Assembly: GCA_007376445.1 (NCBI GenBank) | Contig: VMGF01000002.1 | Location: 103,928 to 167,927, forward strand | Length of the DNA stretch: 64,000 bases | Source of the DNA: Parcubacteria group bacterium Gr01-1014_3 | GTDB lineage: Bacteria > Patescibacteriota > Minisyncoccia > UBA6257 > WO2-44-18 | Direction: 5' to 3' | Shown: positions 49,155 through 63,119 of the stretch, in pieces | How the letters are laid out: each line of letters starts with the position of its first letter | How positions within the stretch are numbered: position 1 is the stretch's first letter | Made by a program: the position numbers and the translations under genes | The notes under the pieces: generated by a model | Database searches by the model: none | Seen by the model: the letters and a program-made list of their open reading frames with translations, nothing else | Told to the model about the DNA's origin: nothing

Positions 49155-50525
49155 ATGATGTTGCGATCGATTAATCCATCGAATTATAAGGTTGTGGGTT
49201 CGGTTAAGGTCTCGACTCCCAAAGAAATTAGCGACAAAGTTCGCCAGGCTCGTCTTTACCAAAAATATTGGTCGGAAATGGGAGCGGCGATGCGAGTTCA
49301 TATGGTGCGTAAAGCGATGGCCGAATTTGAAAAGCGGAAGGACGAAGTGATCAAGCTGGAATCGATGGAGATGGGCAAACCCATTACCGCGGCAGCCAGC
49401 GACTTCAATGACGCGATGGCTTTCGCCAACTGGTACTTGGACAACGCGGAAAAGTGCCTCGCCGCAGAAACGACTTTCGAGGACGAAAAGGAAATTCACC
49501 GGGTTTACCGTGAACCGCTCGGAGTGGCCGCGGTGATTATTCCTTGGAATTACCCGTTCCTGATGTTCGTCTGGACGGTCATTCCCAATCTGCTGGCCGG
49601 TAACTGCGTGGTTCTCAAGCACTCGGAAGAGTGCCCGCTAATAGGAAAGCTCATTGAAGAAGTGATGCATAAGTACGTTCACGTGAGCGCCTTTTCGGAA
49701 GTTTACGGCGGCGGCGAGGTCGGGATGCTGCTAGTTCGGAACGATATTGGTCTCATTTCTTTTACCGGCAGTACTGCAACCGGGAAAAAGCTTTACGAAA
49801 CCGCCGGCCGGAAGTTCATCCGCGCGGTTATGGAAATGGGCGGCTCGGCTCCCGGAATTGTTTTTGAAGATGCCAATATCGATGAGGCAGTCAAAAGCAT
49901 CTGCACTTATCGTTTGACCAATGCCGGTCAGTACTGCGATGGCCTGAAGCGGCTGATGGTTCATCAGGACCGATTTGAAGAGGTGGTCAGTAAGCTCTCC
50001 AATGCCTTCGCGACCCTGTGGGTTGGTCCGGCCGATCTTGAAAGCACCGAGCTGGGTCCTCTCGTCGCGAAACGACAGCTTGATCTCTTGGCAGCGCAAG
50101 TCGCTGATGCTAAGAGGTTGGAAGCTCGCGTAATCACTGGCGGTAAGTCATTGGAATCTGAGCTTGGGGGCGCGTTTTTCCAGCCCACGCTTTTGACCGG
50201 TGTTACTCCGGCAATGAGAGTCTGGAGAGAAGAGGTCTTTGGTCCAGTTCTGCCGGTGGTAAGGTTTAGAACCGAGGACGAGGCGATCTCAATCGCTAAC
50301 GACACAGTCTACGGACTCGGCGGATATGTTTACACCGCGGACATGAACCGGGCGGAGCGAGTGGCCCGCGCGCTCAAGACCGGCATGGTCAGCATCAACG
50401 GCACGAACTACACGACTCCGTTCAACCCCTTTGGCGGCTGGAAGAACTCCGGCATGGGCCGCGAGCATGGCAAGTACGGCTTCCACGAACTGACCCAAAC
50501 CAAGGTAGTCGCGAGAAATAAGTAA
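49155..50525 (+). CDS. NAD(P)-dependent aldehyde dehydrogenase
   Basis: ALDH family: FTGSTATG, catalytic EMGG.A and Cys region (QYCDGL). Confidence 0.85.
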   Translation: MMLRSINPSNYKVVGSVKVSTPKEISDKVRQARLYQKYWSEMGAAMRVHMVRKAMAEFEKRKDEVIKLESMEMGKPITAAASDFNDAMAFANWYLDNAEKCLAAETTFEDEKEIHRVYREPLGVAAVIIPWNYPFLMFVWTVIPNLLAGNCVVLKHSEECPLIGKLIEEVMHKYVHVSAFSEVYGGGEVGMLLVRNDIGLISFTGSTATGKKLYETAGRKFIRAVMEMGGSAPGIVFEDANIDEAVKSICTYRLTNAGQYCDGLKRLMVHQDRFEEVVSKLSNAFATLWVGPADLESTELGPLVAKRQLDLLAAQVADAKRLEARVITGGKSLESELGGAFFQPTLLTGVTPAMRVWREEVFGPVLPVVRFRTEDEAISIANDTVYGLGGYVYTADMNRAERVARALKTGMVSINGTNYTTPFNPFGGWKNSGMGREHGKYGFHELTQTKVVARNK

Positions 50526-50529
50526 AAGA

Positions 50530-50563
50530 AGACACCGGCTGTTTATAAACAGCCGGTTTTTTA
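50530..50563 (+). terminator. rho-independent terminator
   Basis: acaccggctgtttat-aaacagccggtttttt. Confidence 0.65.
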
Positions 50564-50608
50564 TTTCGTAAAATCCTTATTCGCTTATTCGCGCGAATTA
50601 GACCGTAT

Positions 50609-50642
50609 AACACTCCAACATTCTTAAGAATGTTGGAGTGTT
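50609..50642. repeat. palindromic repeat copy A (34 bp perfect: AACACTCCAACATTCTTAAGAATGTTGGAGTGTT)
   Basis: perfect palindrome centred on TTAA; identical core to copy C. Confidence 0.7.
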
Positions 50643-50654
50643 AATTGTACGCGT

Positions 50655-52187
50655 TTATTTTAAATCATCCAGAAGCCCCAATTTTACTAGGCGCGACCGA
50701 ATAGCTCCTTTTGTTCTATTAAATAGTGCGGCAAGATCGGCGACAAGTGAACCACCTACAAAAGATCTTCTTAATCTTTCATCTTGCGTTTCATCCCACG
50801 GCAAATAAGCGCTGGGGTGCTTCTCTCTTATTTTTTCATATGACACAAAATTTTTCTGTGCGGATATAGCCACAGGTTCGCCTTCTGCTGCCACGCTAAA
50901 CCTCTGCGCAGCCTTCTCCGACTGCGCTCGGAACTTTGTATCTTTTTCTAATACTTCTGGATGCACCCGAAACGCGAGCTCATTCCAACCAATAATATGA
51001 AGGCCTGAAAGTCTTCTCACGCGTGAAAGCGCGACATAGCCCTGTCCAAATTCAAAAACATCGCTCAAATCCACCACTGCCTCGTCCAAACTTATACCCT
51101 GACTCTTATGTACGGTAATCGCCCACGCAAGACGAAGCGGTAATTGTGTAATGCGCGCTCGAATTGCGCTATTCTCTTCTACTGTCCAATCCGTTGCCCT
51201 GACTTCAATCCGTCGTCCGTTTCTTGCCCTTACAACCGGACATCCGCTCTGCGCGTCAAATTTTTCAACCACGCCCAACGTGCCATTCACAAACCCTTCT
51301 TTCGGATTATTTTTTGTGAACATTACCGCCGCTCCAACTTTGAGATAGAGTGTCTCAGGCGAAAGACAACCCCTCTTAAGCATGGCAACAATTTTTTCTT
51401 GGCCCTGCGCGGACATAGTAAATGCACGAGGATCACCCGAAAGCTTGGCGAGTATTTCATTATTGACGCGATCCACATCAATATTGTGGGAAAAAAGTTT
51501 CGGCGCGCTATCGGGGATGGCGTGATTTGTAATTTTTCTAGCTTTAATGTGCCTTAAGTGTTCGTCGCCAAAAACGTTGCCGCGAATCGCCGAAAGCACG
51601 GCAAGAAAATCGGCATCGTCCTGTCTATGCTGCTCCTCAAGATAACAGACGACCGGCTTCGCTCGCTCCCAGGCGGGCGAGTCATAGGCAAAACCAGCCG
51701 CCGACTCTCGTATGAGAACATTGTCCGCGTTACTTTCCTCTTCAGCTTTAGAAACTGGCGGTAATTGGAAAAAGTCTCCGACTAAAACAATTTGAACTCC
51801 CCCAAAAGGTTCCTGGTTCCGTTTAATTTTGCGGCAAATAACGTCAATCATGGAAAGTGTTCCGGCGGAAAGCATAGAGACTTCGTCTACTATCAGTACT
51901 TGAGCCCGCTGGATGCGTTTTGTGATATTTCTATTTGATGAGATTTTATCAAGATCGTATTGGCTTAATTTAGTTTTAATGCCTATGCCGCTCCAAGAAT
52001 GAATTGTCATTCCTCCGATATGAGTCGCGGCAATACCGGTTGAGGCGGTAATCGCCGGCTCAATGCCCCGCGCGCGCAAATACGCCACATACTCGTTTAC
52101 TGTATGCGTTTTACCAGACCCAGGTTCGCCGGTCAAAAAAACATTAGCTGCCGTCTTCAAAATTGATAATGCTTGGGATTGGGTCAT
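50655..52187 (-). CDS. PIF1-like SF1B DNA helicase with C-terminal HTH-like extension
   Basis: Walker A GEPGSGKTHTV, Walker B LIVDEVSM, PIF1-family motifs; C-terminal 100 aa extra with DLAALFNRTKGAIRSRLVKLG. Confidence 0.65.
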   Translation of the reverse strand: MTQSQALSILKTAANVFLTGEPGSGKTHTVNEYVAYLRARGIEPAITASTGIAATHIGGMTIHSWSGIGIKTKLSQYDLDKISSNRNITKRIQRAQVLIVDEVSMLSAGTLSMIDVICRKIKRNQEPFGGVQIVLVGDFFQLPPVSKAEEESNADNVLIRESAAGFAYDSPAWERAKPVVCYLEEQHRQDDADFLAVLSAIRGNVFGDEHLRHIKARKITNHAIPDSAPKLFSHNIDVDRVNNEILAKLSGDPRAFTMSAQGQEKIVAMLKRGCLSPETLYLKVGAAVMFTKNNPKEGFVNGTLGVVEKFDAQSGCPVVRARNGRRIEVRATDWTVEENSAIRARITQLPLRLAWAITVHKSQGISLDEAVVDLSDVFEFGQGYVALSRVRRLSGLHIIGWNELAFRVHPEVLEKDTKFRAQSEKAAQRFSVAAEGEPVAISAQKNFVSYEKIREKHPSAYLPWDETQDERLRRSFVGGSLVADLAALFNRTKGAIRSRLVKLGLLDDLK

Positions 52188-52188
52188 T

Positions 52189-52548
52189 TTAATCGAAAAC
52201 AGTTACCTCGCCTTTTTCGTATTTCCCAGTCTCCCATCCGCCATATATAAAATGATCGCCATCCTGGTGAAAGTACAACGCGGTAGAACCGTCAATAATA
52301 AGCTGAAAGCCGCGTAAACCCGATTTTGAAGGGATGATATCTATTCGTTCCGTTGCTTGGAAAAATTCACTTGCTTGATTGGCGACGTCCGAATTAACAC
52401 CAAGCTCGCGCGATAGCCGCTTTACGCCGCGAAGAGGCGATACCCTAAGCAATACCCGCGTCCACCAACTCACACCGCCTTCCTTAAGATTTTTTAAATC
52501 AAATTGTATTTTTTTATTCTCGAAATCGAAATCTTCCATATCAGACAT
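52189..52548 (-). CDS. hypothetical protein, translationally coupled to the helicase
   Basis: stop 1 nt before the helicase start; no motif recognised. Confidence 0.45.
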   Translation of the reverse strand: MSDMEDFDFENKKIQFDLKNLKEGGVSWWTRVLLRVSPLRGVKRLSRELGVNSDVANQASEFFQATERIDIIPSKSGLRGFQLIIDGSTALYFHQDGDHFIYGGWETGKYEKGEVTVFD

Positions 52549-52589
52549 TGGTACATTATGCTAATTCGTAAAGCTGTAAGTCAAGGCTT

Positions 52590-52635
52590 CCAATAAACAC
52601 TCTAACATTCTTAAGAATGTTAGAGTGTTTATTGG
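52590..52635. repeat. palindromic repeat copy B (46 bp perfect, variant with symmetric compensatory changes)
   Basis: ccaataaacactctaacattc-ttaa-gaatgttagagtgtttattgg. Confidence 0.7.
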
Positions 52636-52898
52636 AATGTTTTTATGAATTTTATAAATCGTTCTCCGTAGGGTGAAAGTGAATGAATCACATTCCTGCC
52701 TCGGTATTTTTTGTTTACAAGGCCAGCTTGGACCAATCGCCTAGTATGCTCGGAAATGGTTTTGAAATTTTTATTCAAACTTTTAGCAATTCCATCCAGG
52801 TTAATATCAGGGTTTTTAAAAACTAAAAACAATATATCAATCCGGCAATAATTGGCCACGCCCTTGAAATGTCGTTCGAGTTGTTTCGCGCTTCTCAT
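52629..52898 (-). CDS. ArsR/SmtB-like winged-helix transcriptional regulator
   Basis: 89 aa; HTH region ISEHTRRLVQAGLV followed by wing. Confidence 0.55.
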   Translation of the reverse strand: MRSAKQLERHFKGVANYCRIDILFLVFKNPDINLDGIAKSLNKNFKTISEHTRRLVQAGLVNKKYRGRNVIHSLSPYGERFIKFIKTFQ

Positions 52899-52932
52899 GC
52901 TCCAAATCTTAAAACATTTAGTGTCTTAAAAC

Positions 52933-52966
52933 AACACTCCAACATTCTTAAGAATGTTGGAGTGTT
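52933..52966. repeat. palindromic repeat copy C (34 bp, identical to copy A)
   Basis: seen directly. Confidence 0.7.
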
Positions 52967-52987
52967 TAAATGAATTTTCATTAAGCT

Positions 52988-53716
52988 TTAAAAAATGGAG
53001 GGGTAGCCGAGGTAGTACTTGAGGGTGTGGATCCAGTCTTCGTCTTGGCTGCCTTCGGCTTGTTTACTGCCCAGCATCCATTCCAGGTAGCCGCGGTCGG
53101 TTTGGGCCACGTCCGCGATCTTTTTGTCTTTGTGTTTTCCGAAGTTAAATACTCTGAATAATGATGGCCGGCCGGAAATATCAATCATCTTGGCGATGGC
53201 TTCGGGTTCGGAGAGGCCGGTATCCATCATTTTTTTGAGCAGACGGTTAAAAAGCGCGTGGAGGACTTTCACGTCCCCTTCCGCGTCGTGGGCGTTGGCG
53301 TCTTCCACATCCAGTTCCAAAAAATACCGTAAAAAAGATAAATTGTATTCCGGGATCTGATTCTCCGGGTCTAGTTCCCGGGCCACCCGGAAAGTGCAGA
53401 TCCGCTTCGGGATATTCATTCCCTCGGCTTCCAGGATCGCGCAGTCGAATTTCGCATTATGCGCCACCAGGATTCCCCCATCGGTCAGCTTGGCCTGCAA
53501 GTCTTTCATCGTCGCGCTGTCTTTGAATGGCTCCTTATCCGCCAGCATCTTGTTGGTGATATTGGTAATACTCATGGCCTTTATCGACACCGGAATTGGC
53601 GGCTTAAAATAACCTACTTTAACCCCATCGGAAGTTTTGTAGCAAATCTGACAGAGCCTGTCCTTGGCCACATCATTGCCAGTCGTTTCGGTATCTAAAA
53701 AAATAAGTTGGGGCAT
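52988..53716 (-). CDS. DEDDh 3'-5' exonuclease (DnaQ-like)
   Basis: Exo I FLDTETTG, Exo II HNAKFD, Exo III HDAEGDVKVL. Confidence 0.75.
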   Translation of the reverse strand: MPQLIFLDTETTGNDVAKDRLCQICYKTSDGVKVGYFKPPIPVSIKAMSITNITNKMLADKEPFKDSATMKDLQAKLTDGGILVAHNAKFDCAILEAEGMNIPKRICTFRVARELDPENQIPEYNLSFLRYFLELDVEDANAHDAEGDVKVLHALFNRLLKKMMDTGLSEPEAIAKMIDISGRPSLFRVFNFGKHKDKKIADVAQTDRGYLEWMLGSKQAEGSQDEDWIHTLKYYLGYPSIF

Positions 53717-53745
53717 GCGTTAATTAACTCATTCTACTATTTTCT

Positions 53746-54477
53746 CTATTTTTGCGAAACGCCAAGAGCGGAAATAATCTTATTCCCCATCTCTTCCGAC
53801 CAGTTCGTTATCGGCGAAAGTTCAAAAATGTGGTTTGTAAGTTTGCTAGCCTCGGTTATAAAAATTCCAGTTTCGCCGGTAATTTTCCCGATTTTTCCAC
53901 CCGCCAAAACCAACATTGCCATCACCCGAACATCTACCCCTTTAGTCTTAAAGAATTTAACCAAAAAATCTTTTTGTCGCGCAGTTTGCCAAACGGGCCT
54001 AGGAAGTTCAAAAAAGTTATACCATCCTCTCTTTTTATGCATGTGCCCTGCTTCAAAATCGAAAACACCAGAATAATTTTTAACCTCAAGAATAATTACG
54101 CCCTTGGGACCGAGTAAAAGCCCATCAATATCACCGATGCGCGTATTGGGGATTATATAATTCGGCACATAGATATAGCTGTCGTCCAAAGTTTCCTTTA
54201 ACATGTTAAGGATTTTTTCTTCGCCTTCCTTACCGGATTGAAATCCAGAAATTTTATCGAACAATGGATCTCCGTATTTTCGGCTAATTAAAATTATGAT
54301 TAAGCCGATAGTAGTAACTACCCACAAATATTTTGATTGACGTAAGGTTGGAATCACCAAGGTCAATGCAATCGTTACCATCACGAAGAGTATCACAAGC
54401 AAAACCGCTGTACCCCAAGGTGCATACTTGCGAAGATTTTTCGAGCTATAAGATTCTTGAAATTGGATAATTTTCAT
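53746..54477 (-). CDS. NERD-domain nuclease-related protein, membrane-anchored
   Basis: 2 TM then NERD pattern GDIDGLLLG...VIILEVKNYSG. Confidence 0.65.
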   Translation of the reverse strand: MKIIQFQESYSSKNLRKYAPWGTAVLLVILFVMVTIALTLVIPTLRQSKYLWVVTTIGLIIILISRKYGDPLFDKISGFQSGKEGEEKILNMLKETLDDSYIYVPNYIIPNTRIGDIDGLLLGPKGVIILEVKNYSGVFDFEAGHMHKKRGWYNFFELPRPVWQTARQKDFLVKFFKTKGVDVRVMAMLVLAGGKIGKITGETGIFITEASKLTNHIFELSPITNWSEEMGNKIISALGVSQK

Positions 54478-54483
54478 TTTTTA

Positions 54484-54519
54484 GTTGTTTCGGTATCTAA
54501 AAAAATAAGTTGGGGCATG
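54484..54519 (-). pseudogene. duplicated 5' fragment of the exonuclease gene (MPQLIFLDTETT*)
   Basis: ~33 nt identical to 53684-53716 incl. start codon, then stop. Confidence 0.5.
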
Positions 54520-54521
54520 GT

Positions 54522-55070
54522 TTATTTTGGGTTTGGTTGTTGCTTCTCTGTAAGTTTAATATATTCAACAAGCTTTGCGCCATCAATAAGCTCTATACCA
54601 ACCCTGTTGGCAAAAATTCTAGCCGTATGAATAAATCCATAAGTGAAATAACTGGTGGTGACGAAAATTCCTTTGGCGTCGGGATGATCAGCCTTGAGTG
54701 CCCCGAAGAACTCCCTCACCTGCTGTACGCGCACAGGGTGTTTAAGTCCGTATTTTTTGACCTGAATATAATAAATTTGACTATCCTTCTCTGCCTTCAC
54801 ATCAAATCCACCATCGGCCTGATGAACTCCGCCAATAACCTGAACATTCTCATATCCCATTTTTTTAAAAAGCATACCAATATAATCTTCAAATTCTTCT
54901 GGGTGCAATTTATGTATAAGGTCACCGAGGGTCTTTTGGCTGGCCAGCCACTTCTTATATCGCCTGTAGCGAAAATAGCCAACGATCAATCCAACTGCAA
55001 TGAACGGCACCAAGACATAAACAAAGGGTTTAATTGCGGCCAGCAAGACGGCCTGAGGAAGTTCGATCAT
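54522..55070 (-). CDS. Mrr-like restriction endonuclease domain protein, membrane-anchored
   Basis: TM then Mrr_cat pattern (FE..IG.LF..MGY, QADGGFD, YYIQVKKY, GIFVTTSYFT). Confidence 0.7.
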   Translation of the reverse strand: MIELPQAVLLAAIKPFVYVLVPFIAVGLIVGYFRYRRYKKWLASQKTLGDLIHKLHPEEFEDYIGMLFKKMGYENVQVIGGVHQADGGFDVKAEKDSQIYYIQVKKYGLKHPVRVQQVREFFGALKADHPDAKGIFVTTSYFTYGFIHTARIFANRVGIELIDGAKLVEYIKLTEKQQPNPK

Positions 55071-55092
55071 ATGTATATCTTACTATAAAATT

Positions 55093-55119
55093 TGCGCCCT
55101 CGGCAGGGATCGAACCCGC
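55093..55119 (-). pseudogene. tRNA 3' fragment (T arm GCGGG-TTCGATC-CCTGC + acceptor 3' strand CGAGGGC-G)
   Basis: no matching 5' half (GCCCTCG) upstream; parent tRNA not in window. Confidence 0.5.
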
Positions 55120-55159
55120 AAAATCGGGATAGCCAAACTTAAGCTACTGCCAAGAATTT

Positions 55160-55192
55160 TAAAACCGCCATTGGGCCCAATGGCGGTTTTAG
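55160..55192. terminator. bidirectional hairpin terminator (aaaaccgccattgggcccaatggcggtttt)
   Basis: perfect 12-bp stem. Confidence 0.5.
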
Positions 55193-55350
55193 GACGGAAT
55201 CAGTCGATGTATCACGAACAATCTTTTCTAAGACCCCTCTAAAGCAATCGCGTCAGATTTGTCAGAAAATTAAGATCGTCTGAGTAAGGAAATATTCTAA
55301 TTCTTGAGGTGAGTTGCTCGATTGGTACCTAGCTTTCATCCGACCCATAA

Positions 55351-55716
55351 TCACTTACCAAGTTTGTTGTATTTCGGTTTATATCTCGAAATTTCCGAAG
55401 CCTCAAAATCTTCAGCTTCTTGAGCGTTATCGCAAAGATGATAGCCGAAATGCGTTACGCCTGGCCAGTAATCACCTCGAAGATGGTCAAGCAGCCTACC
55501 TCGGATGCCGTCTTCGCTAACTGCCCTTCCGATGTAAAGAGGTATTAGGCCGCCATCCGTTGTTATCAAGCCGCAATAATAAACACCGATATGGTATGAA
55601 TTCAAATTACGTACGGTATCATCATTGTAGCTATAATGCCCACTATAATCGTTCACCATTATTGTTATTTCATCTCTTCTTATTATTCTCCGGCTCGACG
55701 AACCTTCGCGGCGCAT
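55351..55716 (-). CDS. GIY-YIG nuclease-domain protein
   Basis: GVYYCG...PLYIGRA...R..HL; likely start at the internal Met (MVNDYSG). Confidence 0.5.
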   Translation of the reverse strand: MRREGSSSRRIIRRDEITIMVNDYSGHYSYNDDTVRNLNSYHIGVYYCGLITTDGGLIPLYIGRAVSEDGIRGRLLDHLRGDYWPGVTHFGYHLCDNAQEAEDFEASEISRYKPKYNKLGK

Positions 55717-55865
55717 TAAGAGAAAATGCTCGGTGAACCAGCTGTGGTCACTCTATAATTTTCTAAAATAACGTGGGCTATGTCAAATAGTATTGTGAAT
55801 ATGATGTGTATGATCTGGGGATAATTTTTCCTTGACGGTTTGCCTACGCTTGGTAAATTTACTAT

Positions 55866-56498
55866 ATGCATAACCTACAAATCAAATTATTAAAAATCCT
55901 TGGGAAGATAGATTTTTCCAAAGAAAGCCTGCGGAGTATCGCCAAAATGGTGGGCGAAAAATATCCACAAAAGATAAAGCACCATATTACCCAGTTAGAG
56001 AAAAAGTATCTAATCTCCGTAGACTGGCAGAATAAGCGGATCACAAAGACCGATCCGAAAAAAATGAATAACTCTCCCCTACTCTCGATCCCGATCGTAG
56101 GTATGGCCAACTGCGGCCCAGCCCTGGTCTTTTCCGAGCAGAATATCGAAGGCTTCGTAAAAATTTCCAAAGTGATCCTCGGTCTCAAAGCGATTGGCGA
56201 CTTCTTCGCTATCCGCGCTTCCGGTAATTCGATGAATCGCGCGAAGGTGGCCGGCAAAAGCATTGAAGACGGCGATCTAGTCATAGTTGATCCTCGGCTC
56301 AAAGAACCCCGCAATGGCGACTATGTTCTTTCTATTATCGACAATGTCGGCAACATCAAAAAATTCTTCCGTGACGCCAAAAATAAGCTAGTCATGCTGC
56401 TCTCCGAATCCACCGAAGACTATCCTCCAATCTATATATCCCCTCGTGAAGACTACTTCGTAAGCGGAAAGGTCATCTATGTAATAAAAAAGAGCTAG
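55866..56498 (+). CDS. LexA-like S24 peptidase family repressor (N-terminal HTH + C-terminal S24)
   Basis: ASGNSMN Ser nucleophile region and downstream K; ~210 aa. Confidence 0.65.
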   Translation: MHNLQIKLLKILGKIDFSKESLRSIAKMVGEKYPQKIKHHITQLEKKYLISVDWQNKRITKTDPKKMNNSPLLSIPIVGMANCGPALVFSEQNIEGFVKISKVILGLKAIGDFFAIRASGNSMNRAKVAGKSIEDGDLVIVDPRLKEPRNGDYVLSIIDNVGNIKKFFRDAKNKLVMLLSESTEDYPPIYISPREDYFVSGKVIYVIKKS

Positions 56499-56521
56499 TT
56501 TTCGTTCAACCGATAACTATT

Positions 56522-57415
56522 TTGAAAAAAATGATCCAGCTTAATTTATTTAGCAGTAGGTCATTATTGTATAATGAGTACATGGAGCTGGATCAATATT
56601 TCACTAAGTCTGATGTAGCTAACCGGTGTCTTGAGCTTCTTTATGACAAGCTCCCAGGAATTCGAAATAAGTCCTTTATAGAGCCGTCAGCTGGCAATGG
56701 GTCTTTTTATTCAATTTTGCCAAAATCACGAAGAATTGGCTTAGATATTGCTCCCCAGTCGCCTGATATTAAAAGGGCAGATTTTTTGAGCTGGGAACCT
56801 AAAAGAAGCTCTCAGGATAAATATGTGATAGTCGGGAACCCTCCATTTGGACACCGCTCCAAGCTAGCTATAGATTTTTTTAATCATTCAGCAGATATCG
56901 CAAACACGATTGCTTTTATCGTACCTCGTCAATTCGAAAAATATTCTGTTCACTCAAAATTAAACAAAGACTTTAGACTTATCCACAGCCAAGAATTGGC
57001 CGAAAATTCATTCTACACTCCAAGTGGCAAGGATTTTGCCGTACGATGCGTTTTCCAAGTTTGGACTCGCAATGAAACAGAGCATGAAAACATGCGCATA
57101 CTTGAAGCGCCTCCAATCGTCCACCCCGACTTTGAGATGTACCAGTACAACAACACCCCAGATGCGCTAAAGTTTTTTGATAAAGACTGGGACTTTGCCG
57201 TTCCTAGGCAGGGCTATGAAGATTATACAAGGCGCGAAAAGCATAAAAATCGCTGCGAACTTAATAAGCAGTGGATAATGTTTAAGGTAAAAACGGAACA
57301 GGCTCGAGATAGACTGTTCAATTTTGACTTCTTTTCGCTTGCCAAGAAGAACACGATGGTTTATGGTTTCGGCAAAGCCGACGTCGTAATGGAATACAGC
57401 AAGCGTTATGATTAA
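56522..57415 (+). CDS. type II N6-adenine DNA methyltransferase
   Basis: motif I EPSAGNGSF, motif IV NPPF (VIVGNPPFG). Confidence 0.75.
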   Translation: MKKMIQLNLFSSRSLLYNEYMELDQYFTKSDVANRCLELLYDKLPGIRNKSFIEPSAGNGSFYSILPKSRRIGLDIAPQSPDIKRADFLSWEPKRSSQDKYVIVGNPPFGHRSKLAIDFFNHSADIANTIAFIVPRQFEKYSVHSKLNKDFRLIHSQELAENSFYTPSGKDFAVRCVFQVWTRNETEHENMRILEAPPIVHPDFEMYQYNNTPDALKFFDKDWDFAVPRQGYEDYTRREKHKNRCELNKQWIMFKVKTEQARDRLFNFDFFSLAKKNTMVYGFGKADVVMEYSKRYD

Positions 57416-58082
57416 CTCTTTATTTGAATCTATTCGAGATGACAAACAACTCTATCTAAATGCCCGCGAAGGAAGTGAATTTGAAGATAGGGTTGTTTAC
57501 TATTTAAAAAGCACCCTTGGCCTAACCCGCATCCTAAGACGGGACGTTGTGGCAAAAGACTGGGCGGCAATCAGTAGCCAGCTGGCTAATAAATTTGGCA
57601 CAGAATACCTTAACTTGCCCAATAAAAAGCTTAGAAAAACATTCATCTACCAACCACGCGGAAAACAAGAGTTTCCAGACATTATTGTTTTTAGTGATAA
57701 AAAAGTCATACCTATTGAGATAAAGTTCTCAGCTAATAGCCAGACGAAACCCATGTGGAATAGTAATGTTCCTAGGGCTAATGCTTTTTATATTTTTGGA
57801 TCATATGGGTTACAGGACATAACTTTCTTTTGTGGTGATAGCATCATTAGTCCAAAACACAGGGAAAGGCTGTATGGATTTTTTGATGATATCAAGAAGC
57901 TAGAGGATGAGATCAGAACTAAAATGCCTGAGCTGGATACAACGGACCGAGGATTTACTCCTTATATTAGAGCGGCATTCGATCAAAAAAAGCACAAGGA
58001 TACGGTAGTAACAAACTTCTTCACTCATCCGAAGCGGATTGAGGCAGAGAATTTAGCAATCGAAAAGCTGAAAGCCCTATAG
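57408..58082 (+). CDS. putative type II restriction endonuclease (PD-(D/E)xK)
   Basis: PDIIVF...IEIK motif; overlaps the MTase stop. Confidence 0.5.
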   Translation: MINSLFESIRDDKQLYLNAREGSEFEDRVVYYLKSTLGLTRILRRDVVAKDWAAISSQLANKFGTEYLNLPNKKLRKTFIYQPRGKQEFPDIIVFSDKKVIPIEIKFSANSQTKPMWNSNVPRANAFYIFGSYGLQDITFFCGDSIISPKHRERLYGFFDDIKKLEDEIRTKMPELDTTDRGFTPYIRAAFDQKKHKDTVVTNFFTHPKRIEAENLAIEKLKAL

Positions 58083-58087
58083 GGAGC

Positions 58088-58885
58088 TTATTCAACTCCT
58101 AATGCAGATTTGGCGCGAGCATAATTAGCTTTTCGATCATCTAATCCAGTAAGACCCCCATTAATTGCCTTCGTAAGTCTAACGAAATCTCCACTATCGG
58201 CGATAATATTACAGTTTCGGTTGTTCCAATACCAACCAGCCGAACGAAATGCATCTAATGGCTGCTCAAGCAATTCCGGAAATGCGATCAGATCGATACC
58301 CAGCCCAATACCGCACGCTTTATAATTACTACGGCCAGTTGTCTGGATAACGCCCCGACCTCTATATCGCCATCCGTCACCACTTGCTTCGTCCCCATTT
58401 CCCAAGCGATTACTATAAACGTGGTTTGCGATTTTCTCTGCCTGCTTAGCATAAACGCTGGCACTTTCTGACGTAAAACGACTTGGCCAGGTATTTACTA
58501 GGGCTTGAGCCGAATAATTCAGATTTTCTAAAAATGCGGAATACCCAGCCGATTCGTGAGAAGTTTGAGCAATGAAGGCAGCAATACGAATAGGAGTATT
58601 TATTTCGAACTCGGTTAATACTTTCAATAAATGTGGCAGATACTCGTTACATTTAGACTCCGCTAGGGTAGGAAGAATTTTTCCTAATTGTTCTGCGGTA
58701 ATAAGAACATCGACGCTTTCAAGAATACTCGGCGGTTCAGAACCTGGAATTTGAGGCGTAGATTTAATTGCCGTTTCGCTTATCGAATCATCCGGAGTTG
58801 ATATTGGGGTATTAATGGAAACCGAAGATTTCGGTTTAAGGTACTCCTTCAGAAAATTAATTATGTTTTGTATTATGTATTTCAT
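58088..58885 (-). CDS. GH19 family lysozyme/chitinase-like protein with N-terminal extension
   Basis: FIAQTSHESAGY, RYRGRGVIQTTGRSNY GH19 catalytic motifs. Confidence 0.7.
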   Translation of the reverse strand: MKYIIQNIINFLKEYLKPKSSVSINTPISTPDDSISETAIKSTPQIPGSEPPSILESVDVLITAEQLGKILPTLAESKCNEYLPHLLKVLTEFEINTPIRIAAFIAQTSHESAGYSAFLENLNYSAQALVNTWPSRFTSESASVYAKQAEKIANHVYSNRLGNGDEASGDGWRYRGRGVIQTTGRSNYKACGIGLGIDLIAFPELLEQPLDAFRSAGWYWNNRNCNIIADSGDFVRLTKAINGGLTGLDDRKANYARAKSALGVE

Positions 58886-59087
58886 TTGATTTTTTTATTA
58901 TTTTTAGATTTTTGGTACAAAAAACCCGGATAACTTTTCGCCGGGTTTGAAAAACATGTTTCAGTTTTTCTTTAATCAGAGATGATTCTAGCTTTTCGGT
59001 AATCCCCGATGATGACGAATTGTTATTTATTTTTTGTCAGCTACTGACGCTATATATAACGAGCCAGGGGAGACTTTATTTCATTAT

Positions 59088-59135
59088 CTTCTCCAATTCC
59101 TCTAAAATGCGGACCATGGCGAAGGTGGGGAGTTT
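59088..59135. repeat. cassette-boundary direct repeat copy 1 (~48 bp)
   Basis: 40/40 identical to 60528-60567 then divergent tail gggagttt. Confidence 0.7.
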
Positions 59136-59139
59136 GGGA

Positions 59140-59400
59140 CTAGTGTTTATAAACACTTTGTCGATGGCCGATACTCAAAACGAGAATTATTAATCGGTTT
59201 TTTTCGATCCGGTAAATTATCCTGTATGGCCAAATATGAATGCTAAACTTACCGGCGAGTTCGCCAGTAAGTGGCTGCCCCAGAAATGGATCTTGTTCCA
59301 AGTCCTTAAGCGCTTTTAATACGCCGTCCTTTTTAGCCCTAGGAAGCTTTTGCAGTCTTTTTCTGGCTGATTTTGCGATTATTACGTGATACCTGGACAT
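59140..59400 (-). CDS. relE: RelE/ParE-family toxin
   Basis: 86 aa, MSRYHVIIAKSARKRLQKL... typical RelE/StbE pattern. Confidence 0.7.
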   Translation of the reverse strand: MSRYHVIIAKSARKRLQKLPRAKKDGVLKALKDLEQDPFLGQPLTGELAGKFSIHIWPYRIIYRIEKNRLIILVLSIGHRQSVYKH

Positions 59401-59671
59401 ATCCTTCTTCTTTTAATATTTCATCAAGAGTTGAGTATTGGCCCTTCGCGTATTCGGACTCCCCCTTCTTAATGTCTTTCATTATCAACGGATTATTTAA
59501 TATATCAACAGTCTCGATTAAAGACTGATATTCATCCACAGACAAAACCACCGCTTTGGGACGGCCCTTGTCAGTTAACGTATAGTGCCTGTTGGGCCTT
59601 TGTACGTCTTCCGCAATATCAAAAATTTTCCTGCGCGCCTCTGAAATAGGCAATGTAGTGCTTTTACTCAT
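59339..59671 (-). CDS. Phd/YefM-family antitoxin
   Basis: start at MSKSTTLPISEARRKIFDI (the track's 5' extension is repeat-derived); overlaps the relE start. Confidence 0.65.
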   Translation of the reverse strand: MSKSTTLPISEARRKIFDIAEDVQRPNRHYTLTDKGRPKAVVLSVDEYQSLIETVDILNNPLIMKDIKKGESEYAKGQYSTLDEILKEEGYVQVSRNNRKISQKKTAKAS

Positions 59672-59726
59672 ATGTACATAATAACGTACACCTAGCCGAT
59701 AGGTCAAGTTAGTTATCCACCGCAAG

Positions 59727-59774
59727 TTTCTCCAATTCCTCCAAAATGCGGACCGTGGCGAAGGTGGGGAGTTT
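59727..59774. repeat. cassette-boundary direct repeat copy 2
   Basis: 45/48 identical to copy 1. Confidence 0.7.
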
Positions 59775-59933
59775 CGGTGAGACTTTTGAGTCAAATTAGC
59801 CCTGGGGATAACTATTGACTTTATGTGCCTGTCTTTGATACAATCTAGACAAGATCACCACGAAAAAGGCCCCATAAGGACGAGACCTTATAGGGGCCTT
59901 TTTCTTTTTTAGGGCCGTAAGCATGTATTCAAG

Positions 59934-60164
59934 TTATCTTGAAACAATCTTTCTAATTCCAAATTGGTTAAATTTCTCAATGATTCCTTTTACTAATTCT
60001 CTTTTTAGTCTTGAGTGTCTAGGAATTGTGGTAACGAATCGGCCGTGAACATCCTCTACTTTGTAATGCTTCCTACCAGACTTAACGACAAAACCGCATT
60101 TTTTTGCGGTTTTGATTAGTTCGTCTGAAGAACAATCGGAAGCATTAAGACTTAATTCCTTCAT
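59934..60164 (-). CDS. hicA: HicA-family toxin (mRNA interferase)
   Basis: KKCGFVVKSGRKHYKV...GRFVTTIPRHS. Confidence 0.7.
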   Translation of the reverse strand: MKELSLNASDCSSDELIKTAKKCGFVVKSGRKHYKVEDVHGRFVTTIPRHSRLKRELVKGIIEKFNQFGIRKIVSR

Positions 60165-60492
60165 AAGACGAAATCTTCATTTCTAATTCTCGGCTTCTCC
60201 TCGGGGCTGGGAAAGCGTCTAATTCGTATGCAACACTGACCGGCGGTAAATATGTTGGCATGTACTGAAAAAATTTTTGAGGAACTTCAAGATATGTTTT
60301 TACACAATCATTAACCATCTCTACTAGTTCGGACAGCGTATCCCCCTGAGTAACGCACCCTGGAAAAGAAAGTATTTCAGCAAAAAACCCTCCGTCTTCA
60401 GAGCGGCCAACTTTTACGTTTATTCTCGTAGAAAATTCACTCCTTAATTCCTTAATTCTTTTTATGTCTTTTTTGGTAATCTTTCTCTCCAT
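60145..60492 (-). CDS. hicB: HicB-family antitoxin
   Basis: FFAEILSFPGCVTQGDTLSE (RNase H-like HicB N-domain). Confidence 0.65.
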   Translation of the reverse strand: MERKITKKDIKRIKELRSEFSTRINVKVGRSEDGGFFAEILSFPGCVTQGDTLSELVEMVNDCVKTYLEVPQKFFQYMPTYLPPVSVAYELDAFPAPRRSRELEMKISSYEGIKS

Positions 60493-60518
60493 GTTTATAT
60501 ATTATAGGACGTAGGCCT

Positions 60519-62591
60519 TTAAATCAACTTCTCCAATTCCTCTAAAATGCGGACCATGGCGAAGGTGTCGAGTTTGCAGTATTCGAGCATGTCTTTGCGG
60601 AGTTGGGCTTTATCGATTGTAAGATCGCCACGGGGCGTTGCCCCTCGCGATGACGGGTCTCCGGGCGCAATGACGGAGGAATCGGGGTCGTCCTGCGGGG
60701 CAGGACGGCCGATCAACTTGAGCCAACTGGAGGAGGCGGTGCCGCCTTCTTGGATGGCCAGCTTTTTGTAGGAAAGTTCCGGGGCGAGGACGGGCTGAAC
60801 TTTTTTGATCGAGGTACTGCCCTTAAAATCTTTGTGGACGTAGTGCTGTTTGGTGAAGATGTCCATGAGGTCGTAGGTTCTGGAATTTATTGACTCAATA
60901 AATTCCTTGGCTTCGGGGACGCGCGCGGCGATCTCGGTGTTTCTCGAGCACTCGAAGCGCTTGCTCCAGACGATCAGACTCCCCTTCGGCCCGATCTGCG
61001 ACTGCAGGGATTCCACAAATGGTCGGCTGGGGTCGGTAGCCTGGTCGTGTAAAAATTCAAAGTGCTTCAACTTCGCGCCGAGCTCATCTAAAACATAAAG
61101 CGAGTATTGAAACGGGATCTGCTGATATGGCGAAAACCCGTCGAACATCGGAATGGCGGCCGGGAAAGTTTCATAGTCCACGAAATAAAGAGGATATTTT
61201 AACTGCTCCAACTCTTCTTGTATTTTTATTTTATCTACCAAAATCTGATTCAGCACGAAAGCCCGGATCTGATTTTTCTGCGTGTCGTTGAGTTCCATCT
61301 CCTCCGGAACTTCGTGAATATGAAATTTATTGCCGTCGATCAGCGATTCCAGTTTTTTCTTACTTAAGCCGATGCGGTTAATATCGTGGACGCTGTATTT
61401 CGGCACCTGGGGATTGGAGTGATGAAAAGTCGCGCAGTGGTTAGACCGACCCTTGTATATGCAGGTACAAGACCCGGGCGGTTCTTTATCGCTTGAAAGA
61501 TACTTCAAGGCCTGCTCCATCTCTAAAGCCACTGGTAGGGCGAGTTCATTGATCTCGCGGGTGATATTGTCGCTTTTGAATAGATTAACGAGGTCGAGCG
61601 CGCCCTGGCGGACATATTCCGAGTTGAGGTGCATTAGATTTATCTCATTAATCTTGAGGCCGCACTTTCTTAATAAATTGACCTGGAAAGCGAGATCATA
61701 ATAATGGCGCTTCTTGTCGGTGTCGTTGGAGGCTTTGATTTCGGTGATATTCCAGGCGTCCGCCGATTTGTCGTAGGTCAGCACATCCACCGCGGCGAGA
61801 AAGTTGTCTTTTAGAAATACCGGCTGGAAAATGACTTCTTGTTTTTTAGCGATCAGCTCGGCGGTAAGTTTTTGCGCGGCCTCATCCCGGCCTTCAATCA
61901 GCACACCGCTGGGCCAAATTTTGCGCGCCTCTAACTCCACCTCATTACCGGTTTCGATGATGTGCTTTTCAAAATCGGAAAGCTCCGATTTGTAATAAAT
62001 ATCGGGCTGATGAATTTTGTGCCAGACATTCTTCGGGCACTCCCGGAAAAGGATGTAGTCAGTTTTGGATATAAACATATGGATATTTTTATATTTTCTC
62101 TGTAATCTATCTATCAATTCTCTACAAAATAAGACCGTATTATCAATATTATCATTATAAGCATCTTCGACGGGTGTTTTCTCAAGAGGATACTTGCCAG
62201 ATTCTATAGCCCTTCGAATTTTTTTTAAATAATTTTCAATATCATCATCAATATCTGCAAAACAACGTTTGTAAAAATTTATTAAATTGTGCCTTGTAAA
62301 TGCCTGGACGAATCCAGCGCCTGTTGAATCGAGTGCAATCATTCCCTCTTGTAAGGCAATTGCCTTGAGATAGCATTCTATAGCAAACCCGTAGTTCATA
62401 ATGATACGACTGCTATACCTTATGTTATTTTTATATTTTTCATATAATAAATCGGCGATTTCCTCATTGATCTTGGCGTGGGAGATCCAAAGGAAGGGGT
62501 CTTGAGCTGATTCTTTCCATGCCTCGGCATCGTAAATATCACGAGAAAAATCCTCCGGAGGTTTATCCCAAATTAAATCATCTTCATGCAT
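60519..62591 (-). CDS. large multidomain nuclease-like protein (PD-(D/E)xK + Cys cluster, DUF2779-like; C-terminal DnaQ-like DxE)
   Basis: VDVLTYD...ITEIKAS (D..E.K), CTCIYKGRSNHC, C-terminal LYFVDYETF. Confidence 0.4.
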   Translation of the reverse strand: MHEDDLIWDKPPEDFSRDIYDAEAWKESAQDPFLWISHAKINEEIADLLYEKYKNNIRYSSRIIMNYGFAIECYLKAIALQEGMIALDSTGAGFVQAFTRHNLINFYKRCFADIDDDIENYLKKIRRAIESGKYPLEKTPVEDAYNDNIDNTVLFCRELIDRLQRKYKNIHMFISKTDYILFRECPKNVWHKIHQPDIYYKSELSDFEKHIIETGNEVELEARKIWPSGVLIEGRDEAAQKLTAELIAKKQEVIFQPVFLKDNFLAAVDVLTYDKSADAWNITEIKASNDTDKKRHYYDLAFQVNLLRKCGLKINEINLMHLNSEYVRQGALDLVNLFKSDNITREINELALPVALEMEQALKYLSSDKEPPGSCTCIYKGRSNHCATFHHSNPQVPKYSVHDINRIGLSKKKLESLIDGNKFHIHEVPEEMELNDTQKNQIRAFVLNQILVDKIKIQEELEQLKYPLYFVDYETFPAAIPMFDGFSPYQQIPFQYSLYVLDELGAKLKHFEFLHDQATDPSRPFVESLQSQIGPKGSLIVWSKRFECSRNTEIAARVPEAKEFIESINSRTYDLMDIFTKQHYVHKDFKGSTSIKKVQPVLAPELSYKKLAIQEGGTASSSWLKLIGRPAPQDDPDSSVIAPGDPSSRGATPRGDLTIDKAQLRKDMLEYCKLDTFAMVRILEELEKLI
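60528..60575. repeat. cassette-boundary direct repeat copy 3 = native 3' coding end of the 60519..62591 gene
   Basis: encodes KLDTFAMVRILEELEKLI*. Confidence 0.7.
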
Positions 62592-62686
62592 GTTGGTAGG
62601 CCAATAATACCATAAATTAAGTTATCCAGAGGGTATCGACCGACAGCGCTTTAATTGTTATATTGAACTTATAAATGGCCTCGGCC

Positions 62687-62704
62687 CTCTCCCGCGAAAG
62701 CGGG
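62687..62704. other. GNRA-capped hairpin ctcccgc-gaaa-gcgggag
   Basis: perfect 7-bp stem; no U-tract. Confidence 0.3.
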
Positions 62705-62757
62705 AGTTACTACATTAAAAGATTTGCATTTTAAAAAATTTGTGATAAGATAACGCC

Positions 62758-62830
62758 GGGGTCGTAACTCAACTGGCAGAGTAGCGGTTTTTTAAGCCGA
62801 AGGTTGTGGGTTCAAGTCCCACCGGCCCCA
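62758..62830 (+). tRNA. tRNA-Lys (TTT)
   Basis: GGGGTCG acceptor, D arm ACTC/GAGT, anticodon loop TTTTTAA, T arm GTGGG-TTCAAGT-CCCAC; promoter-like TTGCAT-16-TAAGAT upstream. Confidence 0.8.
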
Positions 62831-63119
62831 TGCCCTTTTACAGGAGGTCAGCCACCTCCTTATATATAAGCTCTCGGCGCGATGCTGGCTATTTTGAGTC
62901 AGCGATAGGAGCGACGACGAAGATGCGCAGGTGCGCTTCGAAGAGGAGCGACAAGCTCGATGACTCAAAATAGCCGCATCCCAAAGGGTTGTGACTAAAA
63001 TGAATTATCGCTACGTCGCTCGTCCTTGAAAGAGACCTCTCTATCTGCATCCTCGCTCCTGGCGCTAATTCATTTGTAGTTCACAACGCGCCAGAGATTC
63101 ATATACAAGGAGGTGGCTA
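62831..63119 (+). other. ~290 nt highly structured non-coding leader (hairpin 62842-62860; 15-bp inverted repeat 62888-62902/62961-62975 enclosing a nested hairpin)
   Basis: long perfect complementarities seen directly; ends at a strong RBS AAGGAGG. Confidence 0.3.

Follow-up and report, generated by a model that had tools for sequence, protein, structure and literature searches.

Short palindromes dispersed together with a partner gene are known as REP elements (repetitive extragenic palindromes) and their hairpin-forming doublets (REPINs) of Pseudomonas and Enterobacteria, where the gene for the REP-associated tyrosine transposase (RAYT) is flanked by palindromes (PMC3116915, PMC3337134); palindromes inside coding sequences are known as the Rickettsia palindromic elements (RPE; mentioned in PMC1779305) and from accounts of in-frame palindromic elements and coding palindromes (PMC6649704, PMC2759123). 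Here we analyze a 64,000-nucleotide stretch of Parcubacteria group bacterium Gr01-1014_3, which belongs to the Candidate Phyla Radiation (CPR; contig VMGF01000002.1, positions 103,928 to 167,927 of the forward strand; hereafter the window), in which three copies (P1, P2 and P3) of a palindromic element, PAL, lie around a helicase operon and the gene of a small winged helix-turn-helix (HTH) protein. We consider it reasonably likely, with real room for doubt, that P1–P3 are local copies of a widespread mobile palindrome paired with the HTH gene, the helicase operon being cargo. Searches of the literature by PAL motif, by encoded peptide, and by the topic of palindromes and ArsR proteins in the CPR found no description, and the mobile palindrome is apparently undescribed.

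PAL shares several features with REP/REPIN-RAYT systems: scattered extragenic copies, a single-copy partner gene flanked by repeats, absence of target-site duplication, and hairpin-forming copies that evolve as a within-genome population. The two differ in the partner, which for PAL is an 89-aa winged-helix protein and not a transposase of the HUH/Y1 (IS200/IS605-like) type; in abundance, with hundreds of REP copies against a few PALs per 8-kb block near the HTH gene and a few solo copies elsewhere; and in the in-frame insertions into open reading frames (ORFs) that PAL displays. Furthermore, REPIN-RAYT systems are lineage-specific and mostly vertically inherited, whereas the PAL sequence has been kept across phyla and bears signs of having spread horizontally.

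The likeness to RPE and other coding palindromes is one of kind, with no sequence relation: in-frame palindromes absent from orthologues, lying in housekeeping genes, adding a short peptide to tolerated loops as selfish palindromes would, and with no transposase identified. RPEs measure roughly 100–150 bp and PAL 32–42 bp; PAL, unlike RPE, comes with a dedicated co-travelling gene for a putative DNA-binding protein, and occurs in free-living or episymbiotic CPR bacteria and in bacteria of the Planctomycetes-Verrucomicrobia-Chlamydiae (PVC) group. Neither REPIN-RAYT nor RPE has a non-catalytic DNA-binding partner, so small a unit, or a sequence conserved from phylum to phylum.

A third comparison is with loxP and the pdif modules of Acinetobacter plasmids, in which site-flanked cassettes are excised and integrated by a recombinase acting in trans. 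PAL resembles these in its 34-bp site, inverted arms, short variable center, and bracketed gene cassettes; it differs in that no recombinase was found here, its arms are made of tandem 8-mers, and solo PALs occur inside genes. Integron attC sites are imperfect hairpins in arrays accompanied by IntI; in PAL loci no integrase was found, and the sites are perfect palindromes at 1–5 per 8 kb.

PAL and the winged-helix gene it brackets

The 34-bp perfect palindrome AACACTCCAACATTCTTAAGAATGTTGGAGTGTT is present in exact form at 50609–50642 (P1) and 52933–52966 (P3), as the preliminary description of this DNA had reported, and a third copy, P2, has its core at 52596–52629 with two mismatches to AACACTCCAACATTCTTAAGAATGTTGGAGTGTT. 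The two arms of P2 have changed symmetrically, C>T in one being matched by G>A in its partner, which also agrees with that description; the perfect palindrome at P2, however, extends over 50 bp (52588–52637) rather than the 46 bp given there. All three copies share a rare ACACTC half-site and a TA center, and all are predicted to form RNA hairpins of about −24 to −33.5 kcal/mol (z = −6 to −10.6). The palindrome had no match in 100 dinucleotide-preserving shuffles, and beyond P1–P3 no further copy was found in the 64 kb (≤3 mismatches; position weight matrix (PWM) threshold of 18 bits). The associated genes are all on the minus strand in the order exonuclease, P3, HTH gene, P2, 119-aa ORF, helicase, P1, which bears out that the copies bracket the HTH gene and the operon of the 119-aa protein and PIF1-like helicase. 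P3 lies 34 nt 5′ of the HTH ATG, its last base overlapped by a weak −35 hexamer (TTGTTT) with a −10 of TAAGAT, and by this position it is likely an autoregulatory operator of the HTH gene. P2 includes the HTH stop codon and has the most stable hairpin (−33.5 kcal/mol), whereas P1 lies 12 nt past the helicase stop between convergent genes, with no gene start on either side (hairpin −26.8 kcal/mol, z = −8.3); beyond it is a convergent aldehyde dehydrogenase gene with its own terminator.

Across genomes, PAL is a 32–42-bp palindromic element with the consensus A-ACATTCY-N-ACATTCT-NN-AGAATGT-N-RGAATGT-T. Each arm consists of two tandem 8-mers (ACAYTCY-N and ACATTCT-N), so that four half-sites form two inverted pairs, and the related locus L007 repeats this layout while differing in the bases at the free positions. 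We scanned one genome per species with the degenerate pattern ACAYTCYNACATTCTNNAGAATGTNRGARTGT, which matched at least 120 genome blocks of 8 kb, mostly from Patescibacteria, both Saccharibacteria and numerous lineages of Parcubacteria. About 17 of the blocks, among the matches listed, are labelled Kiritimatiellia, Verrucomicrobiota, Planctomycetota or Omnitrophota, some of them on contigs of 127 kb to 6 Mb. The PAL center is CA/TG in 46%, GC in 36% and TA in 11% of copies from other genomes. No PAL was found in 2.9 million viral contigs, on which ground a phage origin was rejected.

The HTH gene (52629–52898, minus strand) encodes an 89-aa protein of the ArsR/SmtB-MarR type, with Pfam HTH_5 (27.6 bits against a cut-off of 22) and HTH_24 above cut-off; NCBIfam HTH_metalloreg scored 34.2 bits, below its cut-off of 55. 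The AlphaFold2 model (mean predicted local distance difference test score, pLDDT, 94.1) has helices at residues 4–28, 34–41, 45–57 and 76–88 and strands at 61–66 and 69–74, the alpha1-alpha2-alpha3-alphaR-beta-beta-alpha5 winged-helix fold of ArsR/SmtB proteins. Foldseek matched the model to CzrA, SmtB, CadC, SqrR, HlyU and MarR (E ~1e-5 to 1e-4), with query-normalized TM-scores of 0.65–0.76 to SmtB, CzrA and CadC. Alignments of 31 and of 40 homologues revealed neither a conserved Cys nor a His/Asp/Glu cluster in the C-terminal helix, the sites for a metal, metalloid or thiol, and sensing of metals or thiols was dropped as a function for the protein. Neither Y1_Tnp nor any other catalytic domain was detected with Pfam and NCBIfam.

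The known ArsR/SmtB autorepressors (CzrA, SmtB, CadC) share with the HTH protein the winged-helix fold and an inverted-repeat site with a 2-bp center just upstream of their own gene; unlike them, the HTH protein has no ELCVCD-type motif and no alpha-5 His/Asp/Glu cluster, and PAL, unlike their sites, is also found 3′ of the gene, copied around the genome, and inside ORFs. We infer that the HTH protein binds the inverted-repeat PAL at its own promoter, a role that the position of PAL in most loci, 24–35 nt before the ATG, fits.

The conserved unit is PAL-HTH-PAL, the HTH gene being almost always bracketed by two PALs. The HTH family comprises at least 1257 homologous clusters, the best 120 of which are 67–81% identical over 88–91 aa. 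A homologue was present in 30 of 121 loci selected by PAL, always between PAL pairs 315–455 bp apart; in the reverse direction, three homologues picked by protein similarity only (P0040, P0084 and P0079) were all flanked by PAL on both sides, with further PALs nearby. Among 33 independent HTH loci, a PAL was found upstream in 24 of the 29 that could be evaluated on that side (typically 24–35 nt 5′ of the ATG) and downstream in 28 of 32. The HTH TAA stop lies inside PAL (ACA TTC TAA, offset −9) in 13 loci, and extended −10 motifs occur 5–8 nt past the upstream PAL of HTH genes in other genomes. In one genome (L140) the whole PAL-HTH-PAL module stands inside the conserved rpsP-KH-trmD operon, and in the HTH tree the Kiritimatiellia and Verrucomicrobiota sequences nest within CPR, with Saccharibacteria not monophyletic. 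These comparisons show a conserved module that, as read from the tree, has moved horizontally within Patescibacteria and into PVC-group phyla. The earlier suggestion that the palindrome is the operator of an ArsR-like dimer holds up in the very tight and cross-phylum association of protein and palindrome; the binding is an extrapolation from that association.

We then considered the symmetry of the arms. At two pairs of positions left free by the scan pattern, the arms were complementary in 130 of 147 PALs (73 expected by shuffling) and in 125 of 147 (73.5 expected), and the first flanking pair was complementary in 79 against 41.5 expected; the proposal that the palindrome is kept by compensatory change or by arm-to-arm copying is thereby borne out statistically. 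Positions that are otherwise fixed show rare symmetric double changes (ATATTCC..GGAATAT, ACCCTCC..GGAGGGT, and the ACACTCC..GGAGTGT of the window). Since different symmetric variants stand together in one locus (L015, L017), a preference of protein variants was rejected as the source of the symmetry, which instead reflects selection for a hairpin or cruciform, or template switching from arm to arm. Recurrent asymmetric variants with C-A and A-G mismatches also exist. PALs differ by 2.86 mismatches within a genome and by 3.88 between genomes (0 of 1000 permutations reached the observed value), and 74% of within-genome pairs have the same central dinucleotide, compared with 35% after shuffling.

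In three other loci PAL shows signs of being locally unstable: the palindrome is preceded by additional tandem ACATTCTA 8-mers (L088:1416–1451), PAL and a 20-nt flank are duplicated in tandem (L105:5919–6618), and the C-terminal half of the HTH protein is joined to an unrelated N-terminus in a chimeric ORF (L057:1285–1629). Two independent short-read contigs of the same locus, L001 (ending at 2004) and L002 (starting at 1), both break inside PAL; therefore PAL breaks up assemblies and is probably counted too low in metagenome-assembled genomes.

PAL insertions between and within genes

PAL sites lie between convergent genes in 31 cases and between divergent genes in 14, and 49 of 141 neighboring genes end within 10 nt of PAL, 19 of them inside it. 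At least nine PALs are inside housekeeping ORFs, namely those of TsaD, PGK, MurD, MnmA, an AIR-synthase-like protein, a GlcD-like oxidase, HsdS, a GT4 glycosyltransferase and PrmC; the PGK, MurD, HsdS and PrmC ORFs with PAL are annotated by NCBI as full-length proteins. Twelve of 13 intragenic PALs are read in a single stop-free frame, giving HSNIL[EQK]NV[GR]M. In TsaD this peptide is a 13-aa insert relative to solved structures, PGK has an insert at the same peptide, and the insert is absent from homologues in the PDB.

The PGK of locus L056 provides the clearest footprint: one clean 14-aa insert that is encoded by a 42-bp perfect palindrome (CCACA-core-TGTGG) and is absent from 15 other PGKs, the closest relatives found on metagenome contigs, at an identity of 52% or less. 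The HTH-proximal PAL of the same genome has an identical 32-bp core and the same CACA/TGTG extension as the PGK copy. No direct repeats of the kind left by target-site duplication flank the 13 intragenic PALs. When PAL-bearing proteins were clustered at 90% identity, the clusters were singletons or had PAL in every member; a census of the peptide with a synthetic 52-aa tandem query produced 101 candidates, with one hit at E = 2.5.

These footprints show PAL inserting at new positions, in intergenic DNA as well as in frame inside essential genes. The pattern fits near-random insertion filtered by selection, in which the surviving PALs are intergenic, or at 3′ gene ends where a PAL-supplied stop does little harm, or open-frame in loops. 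The earlier idea of TTAA-centered mobile-element ends holds for mobility, given the in-frame housekeeping insertions; the TTAA center is specific to this genome and no target-site duplication accompanies it. Likewise PAL is scattered and mobile, as a MITE (miniature inverted-repeat transposable element) unconnected with these genes would be, but it is apparently low in copy number and tied to the HTH gene, though not to the helicase; nor does it have the direct repeats or recurring transposase expected of a MITE, with its terminal inverted repeats, target-site duplication and transposase-encoding insertion sequence.

CPR/Patescibacteria genomes are very small, tightly packed, and thought to be poor in repetitive or selfish DNA. 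PAL challenges that view in three respects: near base-for-base conservation across phyla, a dedicated binding protein without a visible transposase, and inserts of 12–14 residues tolerated in PGK, TsaD and MurD. For annotation, HSNIL(E/Q/K)NV(G/R)M in a protein indicates an inserted element and not native sequence.

Explanations for the PAL-HTH pair

We propose that PAL and the HTH protein are probably a selfish palindrome and its binding protein, with the protein repressing its own gene. PAL would be the cognate site of the ArsR/MarR-type winged-helix protein, bound as dimers. Upstream of the gene, PAL would cover part of the promoter's −35 region, and the protein would therefore repress its own gene; downstream, the PAL with the stop codon may end the transcript as a hairpin or a roadblock. 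In the window, P2 would stand against the promoter of the 119-aa protein and helicase, and P1 would close the cassette, leaving the cargo insulated and probably co-repressed; the helicase operon itself would be cargo that has ended up between PALs. The inserts have symmetric boundaries, with no target duplication; therefore the PAL unit may be defined by its structure, as a hairpin, or be a loxP/dif-like site recombined in trans.

Several observations weigh against this reading. P2 is upstream of the −35 hexamer of the operon and not over the core promoter, and in 90 of the 121 PAL blocks the 8 kb contain no HTH gene. Neither a transposase nor a recombinase recurs in the vicinity of PAL, whose mobility is read from insertion footprints, and no closely related genome pair differing by one PAL was found. 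The gene calls come from a simple longest-ORF caller. Conservation at the bases specified by the pattern is inflated, since the scan demanded those bases, although the PALs around HTH genes fetched by protein similarity alone and the extra PWM hits are independent of the pattern. The scan lists blocks of 8 kb, at least 120 of them, and both PAL numbers and the presence of the HTH gene are counted per block. Finally, NUDIX genes make up 6 of the 60 genes that start beside PAL against 2 of the 63 that end beside it; together with the repair and stress genes around the HTH gene, this enrichment fits an ordinary regulon partly carried on cassettes.

A bolder form of the selfish-palindrome reading is possible but doubtful: a two-part element in which a DNA-binding protein without catalytic activity and the 34-bp palindrome that it binds are propagated as a pair, either by host enzymes, through recombination of the Xer type or the processing of hairpins in single-stranded DNA, or through a new, protein-directed transposition chemistry. 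If this were true, the pair would seed protein-binding hairpins across streamlined CPR genomes, essential genes included, and portable recombination or insulation sites would shuffle accessory cassettes such as the helicase operon. PAL and the HTH protein also constitute a defined, testable protein-DNA pair for organisms with almost no characterized regulators; PAL may be a marker of horizontal transfer linking CPR with PVC bacteria, and may serve as a recombination or insulation handle in the emerging genetics of Saccharibacteria.

The regulon just mentioned would make the winged-helix protein a global repressor of stress and DNA-repair genes and PAL its operator, carried along by the regulated cassettes, an explanation we regard as unlikely. 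It accounts well for the operator-like site before the HTH ATG, for the NUDIX bias, and for the recurrence near PAL and the HTH gene of PIF1 helicase, MTES_1575 nuclease, HhH-GPD, MsrA/B, TspO, AhpC and Zincin_1. ArsR/SmtB operators are 12-2-12 inverted repeats, which the 15-2-15 layout of PAL resembles. However, a regulon does not predict PAL in frame within PGK, TsaD, MurD and MnmA, nor the excess of convergent over divergent sites with so many genes ending at or inside PAL; scores of unrelated loci cannot each have gained a near-perfect 32-bp site through point mutation, and the neighbors are overwhelmingly non-recurrent (688 proteins, mostly singletons). The extended −10 motif was found on 6% of all PAL flanks against a background of 1.6%, only a weak enrichment, and the idea of promoters at solo PALs was dropped for this reason.

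We assign a similarly low probability to PAL being a site-specific recombination site like loxP, FRT or dif, at which a recombinase in trans (e.g., host Xer) moves PAL-flanked cassettes and the HTH protein is accessory or architectural. The 13–14-bp inverted arms around a 6-bp center (CTnnAG), with variation mostly in the central dinucleotide, would suit such a site, as would the homogeneity of centers within genomes, because strand exchange needs matching centers; diverse one- or two-gene cassettes are bracketed by PAL in varying order around the HTH gene, and the tandem duplication in L105 points the same way. On the other side, no integrase or recombinase recurs near PAL, conservative recombination requires a pre-existing site and leaves new solo PALs in ORFs unexplained, recent copying within a genome predicts homogeneous centers equally, and most centers are palindromic or present in both orientations, giving no directionality. 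For the shuffling of cassettes, as distinct from the origin of new copies, site-specific recombination is kept alive as viable by the loxP/dif-like arms and genome-specific centers.

That PAL acts at the RNA level, as a terminator, an RNase III site or an mRNA-stabilizing hairpin beside an incidental HTH gene, is very unlikely. The high stability of the hairpins (from −24 to −33 kcal/mol, with z between −6 and −10.6), the covariation of the arms, the sites just past stop codons and between convergent genes, and the A-runs and T-runs flanking about 30% of sites would all be explained; yet an element defined by structure only would retain neither its sequence across phyla nor a fixed DNA-binding partner, PAL also lies within the rpsP-KH-trmD operon and within ORFs, the recurrent asymmetric variants carry mismatches, and no Rfam family matched. 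T-runs on the exit side of a gene ending at PAL are no commoner than elsewhere (32%, 28% and 27%). A classical intrinsic terminator was rejected, as T-runs were independent of gene direction across 277 flanks; a terminator scan of P1–P3 matched P2 only, on the plus strand, opposite to the genes, and the insulating hairpin terminators once proposed for these copies find no support in either result.

The anti-phage module first proposed, made up of repressor, 119-aa protein, PIF1-like helicase and exonuclease with the palindromes as control sites, has hardly any probability left: it does lie in a low-GC accessory island, where Mrr, NERD, a LexA-like S24 peptidase and a GIY-YIG-like gene are also encoded, and PIF1-like helicases recur near the HTH gene in about seven genomes, but it is already largely refuted through lack of co-conservation, most PAL and HTH loci having no helicase, the viral contigs having no PAL, the cargo being highly diverse, and PADLOC reporting no known defence system, its hits being to generic domains (P-loop, wHTH, DEDDh and Mrr).

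The helicase operon and other features of the window

The cargo between P2 and P1 comprises two genes on the minus strand. The PIF1/RecD-like SF1B helicase (50655–52187; 510 aa) matches Pfam PIF1 (1.5e-34) and Pif1_2B. Of the C-terminal HTH-like tail attributed to it, Pfam detected nothing in the window protein, whereas a homologue (L145) does carry HTH_40. Helicase homologues lie near the HTH gene or PAL in six loci (L011, L015, L026, L046, L087 and L145), and in L026 and L145 a PAL again stands just past the helicase stop codon. The 119-aa protein (52189–52548) is conserved with no assigned function, its stop lying 1 nt before the helicase ATG; its family is small (31 clusters) and elsewhere adjoins PAP2, MTES_1575, the HTH gene or an uncharacterized gene. 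A sigma-70-like promoter for the operon, TTGACT-18-CATAAT (52555–52584, minus strand), lies 4 nt downstream of the extended P2 and is the best promoter match in 50400–54600 (10 of 12 positions); as the predicted transcription start falls at about the ATG, the mRNA would be leaderless. In other loci the cargo between PALs includes Zincin_1, MTES_1575, PAP2, a KH protein, RhuM-Fic, HhH-GPD, META, Hint and shikimate kinase.

The DEDDh/ExoX-like exonuclease gene (52988–53716, minus strand; Pfam RNase_T and ExoX-like_C) is a neighbor and not a conserved part of the element, with no tblastn match in the other loci examined (L001–L129). A 45-bp direct repeat (53681–53725 and 54483–54527; 91% identical) brackets a NERD-domain gene (53746–54477). 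The second copy consists of the exonuclease ribosome-binding region and first 12 codons (MPQLIFLDTETT), followed by a stop that overlaps the NERD ATG, and it looks as if the NERD gene had entered the exonuclease gene at its 5′ end, with duplication.

Two observations concern neighbors of PAL in other genomes. A family of ~583-aa proteins in tandem paralogues, with no Pfam or NCBIfam match (L040:4373–7882, L051:3–899 and L127:489–5109), has a PAL within ~35 nt past a stop codon in three genomes. In a Harrisonbacteria locus, a PAL-HTH-PAL module lies 2 kb from an unusual 488-aa ORF (L012:1599–3065, minus strand) in which a LexA DNA-binding domain is fused with an S24 peptidase and a DNA methylase domain of the N6/N4 type.

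The PAL-HTH module of the window is at the edge of a low-GC stretch (about 52000–63000; GC of 0.39–0.42 against 0.45–0.53 upstream) that ends near a tRNA-Lys gene (62758–62830) and probably represents an accessory or genomic island. Encoded there are Mrr, NERD, DUF2779, a Phd antitoxin, a LexA-like S24 peptidase and a 121-aa ORF resembling GIY-YIG/Cho, besides several ORFs of no family. Around the Phd-antitoxin-like ORF lie three copies of a 54-nt direct repeat (59083–59136, 59722–59775 and 60523–60576), 85–93% identical and spaced by 639 and 801 nt. Near the other end of the window, two inverted-repeat pairs (3440–3466/6699–6725, 27 nt, 96% identical; 3559–3588/6852–6881, 30 nt, 97% identical) flank a segment of ~3.2 kb that contains two tRNA-Met genes in opposite orientation, and the AT-rich 30-mer occurs once more at 25485–25514.

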